A DNA stretch of 64,000 nucleotides, taken from the IMG/VR virus record IMGVR_UViG_3300021256_000066, positions 32,001-96,000 of that record; one strand, 5' to 3'. Below are positions 8,447 to 53,346 of the stretch, piece after piece (positions within the stretch are counted from its first letter, which is position 1; each line of letters begins with the position of its first letter). The stretch comes from a virus (taxonomy: Duplodnaviria; Caudoviricetes). Below the pieces are notes generated by a model. It saw only the letters and a program-made list of their open reading frames with translations, made no database searches and was not told the DNA's origin. The position numbers and the translations under genes are program-made.

Positions 8447-9427
8447 ATGAAACCGACAACATTAGATTTGAAAGTGCCTCGCGGATGGCAGCAGTGCTCC
8501 ACCCGTGAGCTTGAGATGATAGCCGAGGAGATGATCCGCTCGCAGATGATAGCATCGCTCTCCCGATTCCATCCCTTCGACTGGACCGAAATCAAGACCC
8601 GCCTCTTCTTCCGCTTCTCGGGAGTGGAGGTGACGGACATGGTGGAAGACGAATACGAAAACGACGTCTTTATCTGCCGACACCCGTCGCTCGGCAAGGA
8701 GACGTTCGAGTTGCAGACCTGGCAGGTGTATTCGTTCCTCGAACAGCTGAAGTGGCTCGACGCCACCGACGCGAAAGGCCGACCCCTGCCGATGCCGAAG
8801 ATGATGTGGCCCTACCCCGAACGGCTGTGGCGACTCCGATGGAAACGCTGGAAGCCCGAGAAAGATTACTACCGACCTGGCGAACTGCTCGACGGTCTCT
8901 CGTGGGCGCAGTACCGACTGGCGAACGACTGGATGGAGGTATATACCAATGCGGCGAACGGGCTCATCGCTGAACAAGAGAAGCACGCCAAGGCCAATCC
9001 AGAGCGCATCCGCAGCCTCGCAGAGCAGCAGGAGAACGCCCGACTGGAGGTGCTGGCGCAACTGTTCTACGTGAGCGACCCCGCAGAGCCGTCGAAGGTG
9101 AAGTCAGCCCCGCGCCGACTGCTGCGCAAGATTACCGAGGTCGAATGGCAGGTCATCATGTTCTGGTGGTCGTCGATGATGCAGTACCTGAAAGAACAAT
9201 ATCCGAAGTGCTTCAAGTCGTCGGCCAAGAATCCGAGGTCGCGCTCGAAGCAACAGCCGCTGCCGATTGAGTTATATACCCGCTCGATGGCCACGCTGCA
9301 GAAGTACCTCGGCGGCCTCACGGAAGATGAAATCAACGCCCAGACCGCCCACGCCATCCTGCGCCACCTGAACGACATGGCCGTAGAAGCCGAGGAAATG
9401 GAGAAACTCCGCCGCAAGCACAAATAA
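8447..9427 (+). CDS. Conserved phage hypothetical protein (morphogenesis module)
   Basis: 326-aa ORF, LKVPRGWQQ N-terminus, FWWSSMMQYLKEQYPKCF; follows the DUF6712-like gene. Confidence 0.65.
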   Translation: MKPTTLDLKVPRGWQQCSTRELEMIAEEMIRSQMIASLSRFHPFDWTEIKTRLFFRFSGVEVTDMVEDEYENDVFICRHPSLGKETFELQTWQVYSFLEQLKWLDATDAKGRPLPMPKMMWPYPERLWRLRWKRWKPEKDYYRPGELLDGLSWAQYRLANDWMEVYTNAANGLIAEQEKHAKANPERIRSLAEQQENARLEVLAQLFYVSDPAEPSKVKSAPRRLLRKITEVEWQVIMFWWSSMMQYLKEQYPKCFKSSAKNPRSRSKQQPLPIELYTRSMATLQKYLGGLTEDEINAQTAHAILRHLNDMAVEAEEMEKLRRKHK

Positions 9428-37621: not shown

Positions 37622-37951
37622 ATGAAACAGACGACGGAAACAAATTACAAGCATTTCTACACCAAGGGCAACACCGACTACTTCATCACGAAGGAGGGCA
37701 CGGTGCTGAGCGCAAGCGACCCTGACAGCGACCCGCAGACGTGGCGCGAGATAGCCACCTATAACGGCAAGGGCTACCGCCGCGTCAGGCTGCAGGGTAA
37801 GACGTTCAAGGTACACCGCCTCGTGGCAGAGGCCTTCGTGCCGAACCCCTACAGCCTGCCAAACGTGCTCCACAAGGACGGCGATCGTGAGAACAATCAC
37901 TACACCAACCTGGAGTGGAGCTCACGCCAGAGTAATCATCCACGAGCATGA
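37622..37951 (+). CDS. HNH endonuclease (HNH_3 type)
   Basis: VHRLVAEAFVPNP...VLHKDGDRENNHYTNLEW. Confidence 0.9.
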   Translation: MKQTTETNYKHFYTKGNTDYFITKEGTVLSASDPDSDPQTWREIATYNGKGYRRVRLQGKTFKVHRLVAEAFVPNPYSLPNVLHKDGDRENNHYTNLEWSSRQSNHPRA

Positions 37952-38097
37952 CTGACCGACCGATGATACTGGGGCGGTACAGCCCGAGCCAGAACGGCAT
38001 AGTGGTAAGTCCATCGGGGATTGCCCTGTGCCTTGCATGGGGGGGTAACGGGCACGACACCGATAAACCGAAAATACTGATAGAGTATGATATTTAG
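37948..38097 (+). CDS. MTase variable-region-like module 1 (G7 at 38039-38045, in frame)
   Basis: MTDRPMILGRYSPSQNGIVVSPSGIALCLAWGGNGHDTDKPKILIEYDI. Confidence 0.7.
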   Translation: MTDRPMILGRYSPSQNGIVVSPSGIALCLAWGGNGHDTDKPKILIEYDI

Positions 38098-38275
38098 AGT
38101 GACCAATACTGCGCAGCCGAAGCCGATACGGGGGGGGCAAATCAGAGCAGTCAACACGACGGGCGACCTGTGTGCCGCCACGCTTACCACGAGATACGAT
38201 GCCGTCGGCCCTACGAATATAATTACGCTGGCACACTATCCGATGACCGTAATACTGATAGAGTATGAAATGTAG
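38087..38275 (+). CDS. Module 2 (G8 at 38130-38137, in frame)
   Basis: KPIRGG..VNT..ATLTTRYD..TLAHYPMTVILIEYEM; paralog of module 12. Confidence 0.7.
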   Translation: MIFRVTNTAQPKPIRGGQIRAVNTTGDLCAATLTTRYDAVGPTNIITLAHYPMTVILIEYEM

Positions 38276-38418
38276 TGGAATAATAAGAATAGGCAACCTC
38301 TTCTACGACAGTTTCCGCAGTGGATTCGACGGAAACGTTCAGGGCTGTATGGGTGTCACTCAGACGGTCTTGGCTGCCAACGGGGGGGGTATATCTTGGT
38401 AGAATATGACAACCTATA
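38265..38418 (+). pseudogene. Module 3 (G8 at 38382-38389, frameshifted; G9 restores YILVEYD end)
   Basis: MKCSGIIRIGNLFYDSFRSGFDGNVQGCMGVTQTVLAANGGG, then premature TAG. Confidence 0.65.
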
Positions 38419-38588
38419 AGGCAATCGGCTGGACGCGCAGCGGCAACGGCAGGGGCGATGTGGACCGCTACCACCTCCGCGACATCTCCAACACCATCAC
38501 CTCGTTCTGTGGGGGGGGTATTGGGAAGGATTCTGCCACCGGCATGTATAACACCACACCGTATATACTCGTAGAATATGAACTATAA
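38406..38588 (+). CDS. Module 4 (G8 at 38511-38518, in frame)
   Basis: DISNTITSFCGGG...NTTPYILVEYEL. Confidence 0.7.
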   Translation: MTTYKAIGWTRSGNGRGDVDRYHLRDISNTITSFCGGGIGKDSATGMYNTTPYILVEYEL

Positions 38589-38773
38589 CAACTCGCGACT
38601 GAACGCGATGATCATGGGGGGGGCAATGGGAGCCGAACTACCACGGCGAGATGCTCGACACCTACAACCAGCAGGCACACCGCCACACGGCGATCACCAT
38701 ACTGGCAGGCATATCGTCGCGCAACCACTACTTCGTGTGTGAAGAACGTTTACCATCAAAACTTAGAAAATAT
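38578..38773 (+). pseudogene. Module 5, continuous with the MTase frame but frameshifted at G8 (38616-38623)
   Basis: With G7 or G10: MNYNNSRLNAMIMGGQWEPNYHGEMLDTYNQQAH...NHYFV continuing into the MTase. Confidence 0.65.
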
Positions 38774-40246
38774 ATGATTGCAAAAATTTATCCTGACGGG
38801 CACCCTGACTTGCAGGGAAAGAAAGACCCTACGCACCCAGTGCGCTATTTCGACATCCGAAAACTCACTCCACGCGAGTGCTATTCACTGATGGGCGTGC
38901 CGCCGCAGCAGATCGACACGCTGATGAAAACCGAAAAGAGACCATATATGGCATGGGTGGGCGTAGATGCCGAACTGGCTGTGTTTGGACTGGAGCCGAG
39001 TGCCACGCGCCGCGAGGTGGATGAAGCATATCGCGAGGCTATCGAGAGCCTGAATAACCAGGCAGCTGACGATGCAGACGCACAGGAAGAAACCGACGAA
39101 GATACCGCACGGCTGATGGCAGAGAAGCCCGAAGACAATGCCGAGGAAACCGCGCTGATGCGACAGAACTACGAGATGAACTATCAGCGCATCATCGCTG
39201 CCAGTCAGGAGCAGCGTTACGGTGACGTGCAGATTATTGCCAACTCATCGCATTACAAGCTGGCGGGTAACTCCATCGTCTGCGACGTACTGATGTATAT
39301 CTACGAGGAATTGCTCTACCCCACGTACCGCCGACTGCCGCAGGAGCAGACCGACCTATTCGCCCAGCCACAGTTCCGCTTGACCCGAGACTGGAAGAAA
39401 GAGCCGCTGAAGTTGGTAACACTTTGCAGCGGTTACGACAGTCAGGCAATCGCTATGGATATGCTGCAACAGCGATATCCGGACTTCCGATGGGAACTGA
39501 AGGCATGGAGCGAGTTCGACCCCGAGAGCAGCCGACCATTGGAAGAGCAGCCCGCCATAGTGGCCCATAATCTGCTGTTCCCACAATACAAGGATTTGAA
39601 CCGGGGCGACATGACCAAGGCTGATTGGAGCGACCTCGCCGATGCAGGTATCGACCTGCTGACATATAGCACTCCGTGTCAGTCCATCTCACAGGCTGGC
39701 AAGCGAGAGGGTATCAAGAAAGGTAGTGGCACTCGCAGTGCCGTACTTTGGAGTACCGAAGAAGCTGTTCGCCAGATGCGACCGAAGGTGCTGCTGCAGG
39801 AGAACGTGCGGGCGCTTATCAACAGCGTGAACATGCCCGACTTCAAGGAGTGGTGCAGTCTGCTGGAGAGCCACGGCTACGTGAACTTCCTCGCGCCCTC
39901 GTTCCCGACGGTCTGGGGCACCGACAAGCGCGACAAGAAGACCGTGCCGGGCATCCTGAACGCCAAGCACTACGGCGTGCCACAGAACCGCGAAAGGGTG
40001 TATATGGTCTCCGTGCGTGCCGACATGCTCGGCGGCACGCAGTACGAGTTTCCACGTCCTTTCCCGCTCGACAAGTGCATCGCCGACGTGCTGGAGGACA
40101 ATGTGGACGAGCGCTTCTTCCTAAAGCCCGACTCGGTGATCAAGTTCCTCACCGTCAACGAACAGACCGACGGCAGCGACATACACTATATGGTAACGGA
40201 CCACAAACTGAGTGATGAGGAAATCAGACGTGCAAGAGGTGAATAG
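38651..40246 (+). CDS. Circularly permuted C5-cytosine DNA methyltransferase (motif order IX-X-I...VIII); alternative start at 38774
   Basis: IRKLTPRECYSLMG (IX), YKLAGNSIV (X), TLCSGYDSQ (I), YSTPCQSISQAG (IV), LQENVRAL (VI), GVPQNRERVY (VIII). Confidence 0.93.
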   Translation: MLDTYNQQAHRHTAITILAGISSRNHYFVCEERLPSKLRKYMIAKIYPDGHPDLQGKKDPTHPVRYFDIRKLTPRECYSLMGVPPQQIDTLMKTEKRPYMAWVGVDAELAVFGLEPSATRREVDEAYREAIESLNNQAADDADAQEETDEDTARLMAEKPEDNAEETALMRQNYEMNYQRIIAASQEQRYGDVQIIANSSHYKLAGNSIVCDVLMYIYEELLYPTYRRLPQEQTDLFAQPQFRLTRDWKKEPLKLVTLCSGYDSQAIAMDMLQQRYPDFRWELKAWSEFDPESSRPLEEQPAIVAHNLLFPQYKDLNRGDMTKADWSDLADAGIDLLTYSTPCQSISQAGKREGIKKGSGTRSAVLWSTEEAVRQMRPKVLLQENVRALINSVNMPDFKEWCSLLESHGYVNFLAPSFPTVWGTDKRDKKTVPGILNAKHYGVPQNRERVYMVSVRADMLGGTQYEFPRPFPLDKCIADVLEDNVDERFFLKPDSVIKFLTVNEQTDGSDIHYMVTDHKLSDEEIRRARGE

Positions 40247-40378
40247 GGGGGGCAAATCGGCGGTTGCTACTGGAAACAGAAGGACGGCTATGTGCGCCGT
40301 CCGCTCTGGGGACTGTCCCGCACGCTGAAAGGCGATGGCAATCATCCTGCAGGAATAATCATTGAGTATGAATTATGA
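40215..40378 (+). pseudogene. Module 6 (G7 at 40246-40252, frameshifted; G8 restores). Its 3' part is in frame with the MTase behind the TAG
   Basis: GGQIGGCYWKQKDGYVRRPLWGLSRTLKGDGNHPAGIIIEYEL. Confidence 0.65.
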
Positions 40379-40509
40379 AACAGACACCGAGAGCGTGCAT
40401 CTACTACAACTTGTCGCTGATGTATAACGACGGCATGAAGTGGGACTTGGTGGCCAAGACGGTCATCGGCGACACGCATCCACAAGCGCTATTGATAGAG
40501 TATGAGTAG
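40375..40509 (+). CDS. Module 7 (no tract)
   Basis: MKQTPRACIYYNLSLMYNDGMKWDLVAKTVIGDTHPQALLIEYE. Confidence 0.65.
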   Translation: MKQTPRACIYYNLSLMYNDGMKWDLVAKTVIGDTHPQALLIEYE

Positions 40510-40702
40510 CATTACCCCCCCCATATTGCGGCAAGTCCCTGTTCGGCGAGTGCGGACGGAGTGGGCAAAAGCCGTCAGGCGGCAGACTGGTACCAACCCT
40601 TTTCAGGCCAAGCAACTGGAGGAGTTTGTGTCGGACTACATGCCTACCATCACCGCCAGCGCAAACATCGAGAACTATATCAAAGTAGAATATGAAATAT
40701 AG
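40502..40702 (+). CDS. Module 8 (C8 at 40515-40522, in frame)
   Basis: RTEWAKAVRR...MPTITASANIENYIKVEYEI. Confidence 0.7.
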   Translation: MSSITPPILRQVPVRRVRTEWAKAVRRQTGTNPFQAKQLEEFVSDYMPTITASANIENYIKVEYEI

Positions 40703-40864
40703 AATACAGACAACAAGCACCATGCCGATATACGAAGGCCACCTGGTAAAACCCGGATGGCACCACAAGGCTTGTGAGGTGCTGAATGTGGGGGGGTATC
40801 GACATGTATTCACACCCAGAGCAACAATCTGCTTCAAAAAATCATCATAGAGTATGAGTTATGA
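40692..40864 (+). pseudogene. Module 9 (G7 at 40790-40796, frameshifted; G8 restores)
   Basis: With G8: ...EVLNVGGVSTCIHTQSNNLLQKIIIEYEL. Confidence 0.65.
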
Positions 40865-41024
40865 AACCAATTAGTTATAAACTTGGAGTCCACATCGTAG
40901 GTCATCGCCTGGAGTGGAAAGGTGGGGGGGTATTGAGAGTAATATGTGGAAGAACATCTGCCCTTGCATCCGTATGAACGATTACAAATGTCCAATGAAT
41001 TGTCTGATAGAGTATGACGATTAA
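40861..41024 (+). pseudogene. Module 10 (G7 at 40924-40930, frameshifted; G8 restores)
   Basis: With G8: ...GGGGIESNMWKNICPCIRMNDYKCPMNCLIEYDD. Confidence 0.65.
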
Positions 41025-41162
41025 GACGCGATATATCAACTGCAACTGCGACAATACGGTCAAGTCGATACTGGCCGGATGTTACAAGTTCGGTGCTGCC
41101 ACTCTGCTTAGGGGGGGCAAGCCAGTATGACATCGGTATTGTTTGAATATGAATACGATTAA
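41014..41162 (+). pseudogene. Module 11 (G7 at 41111-41117, frameshifted; G8 restores)
   Basis: With G8: ...TVKSILAGCYKFGAATLLRGGQASMTSVLFEYEYD. Confidence 0.65.
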
Positions 41163-41349
41163 ACTGCGACAGACCACATCGGCCACGGCCAAGCCTATAC
41201 GGGGGGGGTACTTCCTGCCCGTCAACACAGCATCAGGAGGTGTCGCTTGCACGCTCAACACCCGCTACGACGGCATGCAGCTGCCAGAAGACATCCTCAC
41301 GCTGGCCCATTACCCCAAGACCGTCGTGCTCAGAGAGTATCATTTATGA
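41149..41349 (+). CDS. Module 12 (G8 at 41201-41208, in frame)
   Basis: KPIRGG..VNT..ACTLNTRYD..TLAHYPKTVVLREYHL; paralog of module 2. Confidence 0.7.
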   Translation: MNTIKLRQTTSATAKPIRGGYFLPVNTASGGVACTLNTRYDGMQLPEDILTLAHYPKTVVLREYHL

Positions 41350-41461
41350 AGGACGAATCAACAGCAGTCAGGACGGCATCGTCATCAGCGCCCGAGGCAT
41401 TGCCCTCACCCATACCGCTGGTCACGGCAATTGCCCGAAGATATTGATAGAATATGAGTGA
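41339..41461 (+). pseudogene. Module 13 (ATC where the junction ATG is expected; no tract)
   Basis: IIYEGRINSSQDGIVISARGIALTHTAGHGNCPKILIEYE; paralog of module 1. Confidence 0.6.
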
Positions 41462-41708
41462 AGCGAAACGATACAGCACAGCAGGTCGCCCGTTCCTTGA
41501 AATCGCCACGAGGGGGGGGCAGACCGTACTGCGAATCCGACAAGCCACCGAACAGGGCTATATCGAGTGCGACCCGCAGGGTGTCTGCGACCTTGCCTAC
41601 CCGGAGAGCGAACTGCGCCGTGCCCGTGTCAAGGACCGAGGCCGCGTCTGCGGAACGCTGATGAGCGACAATCAGCAGTTCTGCGTCTTCATCGAACATG
41701 ACATATAG
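41454..41708 (+). CDS. Module 14 (G8 at 41512-41519, in frame)
   Basis: IRQATEQGYIEC...DLAYPESELRRARV...CGTL resembles the ATKKGY...PNSKTRRGRV segment of phage C5-MTase variable regions. Confidence 0.75.
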   Translation: MSEAKRYSTAGRPFLEIATRGGQTVLRIRQATEQGYIECDPQGVCDLAYPESELRRARVKDRGRVCGTLMSDNQQFCVFIEHDI

Positions 41709-53123: not shown

Positions 53124-53135
53124 AGACTAAGATAT

Positions 53136-53346
53136 ATGGCAAAGAAAGTATTTCTCGGAAATGGACTAAGCCGCACGGCGATGGTGTTCAAGATTGCGAC
53201 GCTGGCAGGACATAAGCTGACAGTGCCTGAAATGAACCGCATCAAAGATATCAACCCCCGCGCCCTGGAGCGAGTCTATGACTCCGTATTGGGGGGGGGT
53301 AAGTAAGGGCGACGCGCTGTTTGCACTCAGACTTGTATTGAAATAA
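53136..53346 (+). CDS. Small protein truncated at a G9 tract (stop at 53306; G8 would extend it to 53346)
   Basis: MAKKVFLGNG...VYDSVLGGGK* versus ...LGGVSKGDALFALRLVLK*. Confidence 0.55.

Follow-up and report, generated by a model that had tools for sequence, protein, structure and literature searches.

A rumen-type phage locus with a permuted cytosine methyltransferase core and fourteen candidate target-recognition mini-genes, twelve of them probably switched by homopolymer tracts

We describe a candidate DNA methylation locus in a 64-kb window of phage DNA, the whole stretch that was analysed, which corresponds to bases 32001-96000 of the 129,506-base IMG/VR virus record IMGVR_UViG_3300021256_000066, a rumen-type phage genome rated complete. 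Head-to-tail on the + strand, the locus consists of an HNH_3 gene, five small overlapping modules (M1-M5), an open reading frame (ORF) for a C5 cytosine methyltransferase, referred to here as the core, and nine further modules (M6-M14), and it ends at position 41708 (Table 1). Megablast of the locus against GenBank phages gave no match. Our analysis indicates that the modules are target-recognition domains (TRDs) and that G or C tracts in twelve of them very probably act as frameshift switches.

Table 1. Features of the locus, with tract lengths and frame states as assembled (aa, amino acids)
Feature	Position	Strand	Type	Tract, state and remarks
HNH_3 endonuclease gene	37622-37951	+	Pfam E 1.5e-9	Stop overlaps M1 ATG
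M1	37948..38097	+	TDKPK family, 49 aa	G7 38039-38045; ON
M2	38087..38275	+	YPMTV family, 62 aa	G8 38130-38137; ON
M3	38265..38419	+	KWGGY family	G8 38382-38389; OFF, G9 needed; assembled ORF ends 38402
M4	38406..38588	+	NTTPY family, 60 aa	G8 38511-38518; ON
M5	38578..38773	+	No stop of its own	G8 38616-38623; OFF; assembled ORF ends 38742
Core	38774..40246	+	Circularly permuted C5 cytosine methyltransferase, 490 aa	Starts MIAKIYPDG
M6	40215..40378	+		G7 40246-40252, right behind core TAG stop; OFF, G8 needed
M7	40375..40509	+	TRD-like, 44 aa	Tract-less, intact
M8	40502..40702	+	NIENY family, 66 aa	C8 40515-40522; ON
M9	40692..40864	+		G7 40790-40796; OFF, G8 needed
M10	40861..41024	+	KCPHC/KCPMN family	G7 40924-40930; OFF, G8 needed
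M11	41014..41162	+	ASMTS family	G7 41111-41117; OFF, G8 needed
M12	41149..41349	+	YPKTV family, 66 aa	G8 41201-41208; ON
M13	41153..41461	+	GNCPK-type TRD frame	Tract-less, no ATG of its own
M14	41454..41708	+	ETSQC/NQQFC family, 84 aa	G8 41512-41519 in N-terminal leader; ON
Inter-module junctions (n=12)	38077..41461	+	Consensus (A/G)T(A/T)GA(A/G)TATGA	

According to three-frame translation and the ORF list, the modules are 44-84 codons long and share an ending of two hydrophobic residues (h), E-Y-(E/D) and a stop codon, and the 14 modules fall in approximately 12 sequence families. A module was called ON when its frame runs uninterrupted between its junction ATG and the hhEY(E/D) ending, and OFF otherwise, and the first module on each side of the core was checked by hand. 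M5 fuses in frame to the core when its tract is G7 (or G10), giving an enzyme of the order TRD-IX-X-I..VIII, and the ATG of M6 overlaps the 3' end of the core in a different frame.

A regular-expression scan of the window returned the five G7 runs, six G8 runs and single C8 run entered in Table 1, and only two other G/C runs of 7 or more, a C7 at 8426 and a G9 at 53291. The former, a C7A8 sequence, is intergenic and lies immediately ahead of an ATG at 8447, and the latter lies near position 53300 at the 3' end of a 56-aa ORF (region 53130-53300), of which a length change would alter only the tail. The complete genome of 129,506 bases contains 17 such runs, and 12 of them lie inside these 3.5 kb. 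First-order Markov simulations gave a mean of 7.0 runs per genome, or about 0.19 expected per 3.5 kb, and the five runs outside the locus match the Markov expectation. The tracts code for Gly-Gly, for which GGG is the rarest glycine codon of the phage (11%), and GGGGGG accounts for only 4 of the 127 Gly-Gly dicodons outside the locus, which argues that the runs are no by-product of Gly-Gly coding. Taken together, clustering and codon usage indicate that the homopolymers have been selected at the nucleotide level.

An initial annotation, made from the sequence alone, had already listed the twelve tracts with their positions and lengths and noted just two further runs in the window, and our scan reproduces both. 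Its description of one tract per module applies to twelve modules, but fails for M7 and M13, since there are 14 modules and 12 tracts. It had also called M1, M2, M4, M8, M12 and M14 in frame, and each of these is indeed open from junction ATG to ending. The one-base changes that it proposed for the remainder, namely G9 in M3, G8 in M6, M9, M10 and M11, and a change in M5 that restores the fusion to the methyltransferase, have the predicted effect, and in M5 it is G7 that does so.

Each junction between the modules contains the hhEY(E/D) ending, the next ATG within TATGA, and stops in two or three frames. Junction statistics were collected over 78 junctions from the window and eight relatives. 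An ATG is found in 69 of the 78, and stops in all three frames in 45. The junction tyrosine is encoded by TAT in 72 of the 78, compared with 46% genome-wide, and in 48 the codon before it has TA as its last two bases, so that a TAG arises in the +1 frame. On these counts the junction codon choices are evidently selected for ATG and stops. The junction looks designed to stop ribosomes arriving in whatever frame and then to restart translation, so that no module would depend on its neighbours. Stop-codon readthrough or recoding joining the core to M6, which is in frame past the TAG at G7, was also considered and rejected as unsupported, because ARAGORN found no tRNA gene in the whole 129.5-kb phage, long ORFs are normal in translation table 11, and the module stops use all three codons.

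Single modules searched against Pfam, PDB structures and, by word search, longer proteins gave only chance matches, because they are too short and divergent. We therefore rely on a phmmer comparison of all module peptides with the 150 best homologs of the core from a 1.8-billion-protein library, in which the peptides match internal TRDs of canonical and multispecific C5 methylases. For example, M14 shares 34-43% identity with the single TRD present in canonical C5 methyltransferases (P0075, P0121 and others), and motif IX in enzymes of the P0075/P0121 type begins within a few residues of the point at which M14 ends. M10 matches internal TRDs of P0088, P0131 and P0039, and M4 has homology to the TRD carried as an N-terminal fusion by the cores of L012, L015 and P0013 (P, public proteins; L, related loci). 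Furthermore, several module types occur in tandem within one chain in P0072 (672 aa), P0126, P0107 and P0088, and M14-like proteins that stand alone account for at least 99 clusters in public data. P0088 (750 aa) also carries, at residues ~75-390, what appears by eye to be an intein-like insertion within motif IV (FPC ... HNC TDISSAG). Judged by homology, then, the modules are TRDs, and the locus looks like a multispecific methylase dismantled into a core and free TRD genes.

The core matches PF00145 with 130.4 bits (E 1.3e-37, cut-off 22). Its motif order, as read from the translation, is IX-X-I-IV-VI-VIII, and both the PF00145 profile match and the genome-search matches are split in two pieces in permuted order. 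The motifs are recognizable as I LCSGYDS, IV TPCQSIS, VI QENV, VIII PQNRERV, IX RKLTPRE and X AGNSIV, among which PC, ENV and QxRxR are invariant or nearly so in the core alignment (A1). AlphaFold modelled the core with a predicted local distance difference test (pLDDT) score of 87.2 and a predicted template modelling (pTM) score of 0.81, and the top Foldseek matches of this model were M.MpeI (4dkj, E 6.7e-14), M.HhaI and M.HaeIII. About 100 residues are inserted between motifs IX and X (38930-39230), including an acidic low-complexity stretch; this insertion is modelled as strands and long helices, mostly with high pLDDT, and is missing in L012-type relatives.

The core begins approximately 25 residues ahead of motif IX and ends past the post-VIII segment, with no TRD between VIII and IX, and its sole fusable TRD, M5, is out of frame at G8 as assembled. 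In L003, L005, L006, L010 and L011 the core ORF starts at MIAKIYPDG directly behind the stop of the preceding module and has a TRD on neither side. These TRD-less cores are under purifying selection, with a ratio of non-synonymous to synonymous substitution rates (dN/dS) of 0.08-0.20 and nearly invariant first ~30 residues. A TRD is fused N-terminally to the core in the distant relatives L012-L015, L018 and P0013. In some relatives the core's own motif IX (KLTPPEC; L004:5215, L005:193, L006:5107, L007:5250, L008:5218, L009:4048, L019:5095) contains a C tract, ranging from C7 to C10, which is ON at C8 in four phages and OFF at C7, C9 and C10 in L019, L009 and L007. The core of the window reads KLTPREC without a tract and is thus fixed ON.

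Relatives of the core are encoded by 16 viral loci and by L019, a contig binned with a metagenome-assembled genome of a rumen Prevotellaceae. The array is common to ten of these relatives (L003-L010, L019 and, more weakly, L011), with 4-14 tracts of G6-G10. Module order and content vary between phages, and a family located ahead of the core in one phage can lie behind it in another. A gene end similar to that of the HNH_3 gene is present upstream of M1 in L004, L007 and L011.

Each module family has one constant ON length, from which its OFF copies deviate by one base. The NTTPY family (M4) is ON at G8 in five phages and OFF at G9 in L003; the ETSQC family (M14) is ON at G8 in four and OFF at G7 in four; the YPMTV family (M2) is ON at G8 in the window, L006 and L009 and OFF at G7 in L004, L007 and L008; and the KWGGY family (M3) is ON at G9 in L009 and OFF at G8 in three phages (window, L004, L008). 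The FGLPK, ASMTS and RGATA families follow the same ON/OFF pattern, with ASMTS (M11) ON at G8 in L007. M5 is OFF in L004 and L008 (G7, G8 needed) and ON in L007 at G7. In the M1 family the window copy alone is ON; seven phages have OFF copies with G6, G7 or G9, and a G8 would put these in frame. A post-core module of the QKDNLL type is OFF in five phages and intact without a tract in L010, and the M8 ortholog in L003 is likewise tract-less. Overall, tract-bearing modules comprise ~28 ON and ~46 OFF copies (about 60% OFF), the ON copies being mostly G8 and the OFF copies mostly G7.

Closely related phages differ preferentially at the tracts, and in pairs of 95-97% identity the isolated indels of 1-2 bases within the array are located there. 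L008 and L009, at 96.8% identity across 7.5 kb, have unequal lengths at 7 of 13 tracts, and their other short gaps inside the array are all part of one complex in-frame replacement. Likewise, L006 and L019, which share 95.5% identity across 11.4 kb, have nine indel events, six of them changes in tract length, and six of the seven tracts that they have in common differ. All 60 junction-defined modules are complete either as they are or after a one-base tract change, with no further frameshift or internal stop, although for L005 and L006 the restored M12 in this test joined the M12 start to the M13 end, and the true M12 frame differs. In the part of the modules behind the tract, dN/dS amounts to 0.06-0.12 and synonymous sites are close to saturated, in families that include many OFF copies. 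Tract-less orthologs in L010-L018 are intact mini-ORFs, as exemplified by the M10 orthologs of L012-L018, which are intact at 46 aa. Since the OFF copies are free of other lesions and under purifying selection, the OFF states appear to be young and reversible on an evolutionary scale.

The initial annotation had attributed the frameshifts to phase variation by poly-G slippage and had suggested that tract lengths be compared among related genomes. This comparison, with G6-G10 at orthologous sites and modules ON at one length and OFF at one base more or less, supports the attribution, together with the near-identical pairs and the intact OFF copies. We therefore consider it very probable that slippage leads to frameshift and thereby determines whether a TRD would be made. 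Twelve switches would nominally allow the 2^12 combinations given in that annotation, but they are not strictly binary, because M12 possibly has three states and M14 has a second leader.

At M12 one frame after the tract gives the M12 TRD and is selected by G8, the ON length in the window and L019. A second frame, which overlaps the whole of M12 and runs through its tract, is open for ~100 codons after the tract, ends in the M13 TRD, and would be reached from the M12 ATG at G7 or G10. The third frame stops within a few codons in L005, L006 and L019. The overlapping open frames of M12 and M13 are found in five phages (window, L003, L005, L006 and L019), and the M12 tract may be a three-state selector for M12, M13 or neither. 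The M14 leader can be read in two frames, the second of which (GTG 41458 in the window) would join at G9, and the public proteins P0172, P0173 and P0187 use this second frame with one more glycine; among the window modules, alternative-frame starts are plausible for M14 alone.

Long runs are also found in other modification genes of the phage outside the window. Two tandem PF01555 N6_N4 amino-methyltransferase genes (genome 22877-24303) are each split at a poly-G tract, G7 at genome 23422 and G10 at genome 24187, located in the S-adenosylmethionine (SAM)-binding GG-VLDPF-GSGTT motif, and both are OFF as assembled. Adjoining them upstream is a radical-SAM-like ORF (genome 21739-22746; PF04055 E 1.8e-5, below the cut-off) with a C11 tract near its 3' end (genome 22613), past which an alternative frame continues. 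Consequently, 14 of the 17 long G/C runs of the phage lie in methylase genes, and 15 of the 17 lie in DNA-modification genes when the weakly supported radical-SAM-like ORF is counted.

These findings are best accommodated by a modular locus with which the phage would methylate its DNA against restriction, made up of one TRD-less core that has every catalytic and cofactor motif and of 14 overlapping TRD mini-genes. Slipped-strand mispairing at replication would lengthen or shorten a tract by one base and bring the TRD body into or out of frame with its start codon, so that each of the 12 tract-bearing modules would be a heritable and reversible ON/OFF contingency switch. Slippage within phage populations, we infer, is the source of the variation. 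With an ATG and multi-frame stops at the junction, each module would restart regardless of the state of its neighbour. The TRD mini-proteins would then dock non-covalently between the C-terminus of the core, past motif VIII, and its N-terminus, ahead of motif IX, to give active enzymes of differing specificity. Progeny with differing methylation patterns could in this way hedge against hosts with varied restriction, methylation-dependent systems included, and a phage population can probably carry many methylation patterns against host restriction enzymes. As a whole, slippage-switched TRD mini-genes serving a permuted core against restriction are, in our judgement, a reasonably probable explanation.

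The individual steps of this explanation are not equally secure. We rate complementation of the core in trans by free TRD mini-proteins as a little better than an even proposition, because a core conserved without any TRD would have no other way to recognise DNA, because the modules stop precisely where the TRD gives way to motif IX and are translated units under selection, and because C5 methylases split adjacent to the TRD reassemble efficiently (PMC5944983). The most elaborate form, in which the TRD-less core takes any of ~14 separately translated plug-in mini-proteins of 45-85 aa in trans in a Type I-like manner, each of them switched, with one tract picking between two TRDs and with the core itself switchable in relatives, hangs in the balance. 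As for why the modules should be switched at all, we speculate that it allows escape from methylation-dependent restriction or that 14 TRDs compete for one core.

Several points weigh against this explanation. When the core was read through its TAG stop (TAG=Q) into M6 and modelled by AlphaFold, the core was modelled well but M6 was disordered (pLDDT <50), and M14 modelled alone from a 12-row alignment reached a pLDDT of 56. No precedent for a TRD without motif IX as a separate subunit was found in the literature. Moreover, with M5 ON the core would own a fused TRD, with which free TRDs would somehow have to compete. With regard to the switch itself, the ON and OFF states given here are those of a metagenome consensus and could be consensus or homopolymer miscalls, and a systematic under-calling of G8 would likewise leave the OFF copies enriched in G7.

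Among the other explanations considered, all of them improbable in our view, one accepts the production and switching of the mini-proteins but has them function independently of the core enzyme, for example by masking DNA sites, or by modulating or inhibiting the core, host methylases or restriction enzymes. We regard this as unlikely, even though the AlphaFold runs gave no docking signal and a TRD-only subunit is unprecedented: the TRDs of C5 methyltransferases read DNA as part of a small domain with motif IX and the flipped base, and the modules, which terminate exactly at the boundary with this motif, always surround a conserved TRD-less core that otherwise has no means of reading DNA.

A cassette library, in which recombination at the conserved junction repeats, by moving a cassette into the fused M5 slot, would be the main source of specificity change in place of mini-proteins acting in trans, would account for the differing order and content of modules among phages and for the same family lying upstream or downstream of the core; the 11-base junction repeat could serve recombination, M5 is a fused slot, and an HNH endonuclease gene adjoins the array. 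It is nevertheless very unlikely, as silent cassettes would not each require a start codon, stops and a frame switch, direct repeats favour deletion over exchange, the fused slot is missing altogether in five relatives, and no recombinase or inverted repeats were noted at the locus. We assign similarly little probability to the G runs acting in expression, where transcriptional slippage or ribosomal frameshifting would provide a fixed product mix per cell without heritable switching. Homopolymer runs can make RNA polymerase slip, and this would explain selection on OFF alleles; however, known transcriptional slippage is mostly on longer A/T runs, and the tract lengths in the DNA differ between near-identical phages. 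The expression-level and DNA-level mechanisms are not mutually exclusive.

Homopolymer sequencing or assembly errors, with all modules truly in frame and no switching, are a highly improbable source of the frameshifts. OFF copies are mostly one base short (16 at G7 where the ON length is G8), which is the typical direction of homopolymer under-calling, and all sequence data are metagenome consensus. Orthologous sites, however, range from G6 to G10 in 11 independent assemblies, over-length G9 and G10 included; G8 tracts are called correctly beside G7 tracts on the same contigs; and the ON length varies with the flanking sequence, being G7 in M1 of the window and M5 of L007 and G9 in KWGGY. Nor would sequencing error explain the existence of the tracts, their use of a rare codon or their clustering, the last of which the initial annotation had pointed out and which is borne out by the 12 of 17 genome runs found where ~0.19 are expected. 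A reading of the array as the decaying remnant of a multispecific methyltransferase, with pseudogene fragments for mini-ORFs, is barely credible despite the same TRD types in one chain in P0072, P0126 and P0088 and the ~60% of tract-bearing modules that are OFF, given dN/dS of 0.06-0.12 with near-saturated synonymous sites, the tract as sole lesion in 60 of 60 modules, conserved junction ATGs with skewed codon choice, intact mini-ORFs in tract-less relatives, and the clusters of free-standing M14-like proteins.

If slippage-switched TRD mini-genes do serve the permuted core, this would be the first C5 methyltransferase with detachable and exchangeable specificity subunits and, to our knowledge, the densest set of contingency switches in any virus, with 12 in 3.5 kb and two more in the amino-methylases. 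Localised hypermutation would then serve phages not only in receptor binding but also in varying the epigenetic coat that they present to restriction and methylation-dependent defences, which would provide host-range bet-hedging in rumen and gut with a concrete mechanism. A phage population could in this way sample thousands of combinations of methylation specificities. A small TRD-less core with ~50-aa TRD peptides would also be a toolkit for programmable cytosine methylation and a direct route to map TRD sequence onto DNA specificity. The family is common in public metagenomes, as judged from the at least 99 clusters for the M14-like module type alone.

Our literature search found phase-variable bacterial methylases, split or permuted C5 methylases and phage polyG tracts, but no description of poly-G-switched free TRD genes. 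The multispecific C5 methyltransferases of Bacillus phages studied in the Trautner laboratory (M.SPRI, M.Phi3TI, M.Rho11sI and M.H2I) combine several TRDs of ~40-60 residues with one catalytic framework. All of their TRDs are in one polypeptide between VIII and IX and are always made, and these enzymes protect against several restriction systems. The locus described here resembles them in having several distinct TRDs for one framework, and its modules are homologous to the tandem TRDs of P0072, P0126 and P0088. Unlike in these enzymes, each TRD is a mini-gene with its own start, stop and switch (except for the stop of M5, the ATG of M13, and the tract of M7 and M13), and the core is permuted and TRD-less.

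In phasevarions (Type III mod, Type I hsdM/hsdS and Type IIG cj0031), a repeat in the coding sequence toggles methylation by frameshift (e.g. PMC4889913, PMC7383803). The present tracts are similar in that they lie in coding regions, shift the frame between full-length and truncated products, and show a length polymorphism among close relatives that exceeds other indels. However, phasevarions have one or a few switches per bacterial genome, acting on a whole enzyme or subunit and on host gene regulation, whereas here 12 switches lie in 3.5 kb of a virus, each on one C5 recognition module, and their likely purpose is restriction evasion. In Campylobacter phages, hypermutable polyG tracts diversify the phage population, and those described by Sorensen et al. 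2021 (Cell Rep 35:109214), as reported in PMC12823448, are in receptor-binding protein genes. On that report, the Campylobacter phage tracts alter host recognition, whereas those of the window are located in methylase specificity modules.

Type I restriction-modification systems, in which the repertoire of specificity subunits (HsdS) varies stochastically (PMC7394358), likewise pair a catalytic methylase with separately encoded specificity subunits, an arrangement that we infer for the window. They differ in being unrelated adenine methylases that switch mostly by recombination between hsdS copies. Among C5 enzymes, natural permutants such as M.BssHII keep the TRD fused N-terminally, ahead of motif IX (PMC5944983). 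As in M.BssHII, motifs IX-X precede I-VIII in the core of the window; unlike M.BssHII, this core has no fused TRD as assembled, whereas L012 and P0013 have a fusion of the M.BssHII type. In M.AquI (alpha/beta) the small subunit consists of the TRD together with motifs IX and X, whereas in the window IX and X are on the core and the mini-ORFs stop just before IX. Compared with both M.BssHII and M.AquI, therefore, it is the TRD alone that is detached here, on both sides and in 14 versions.

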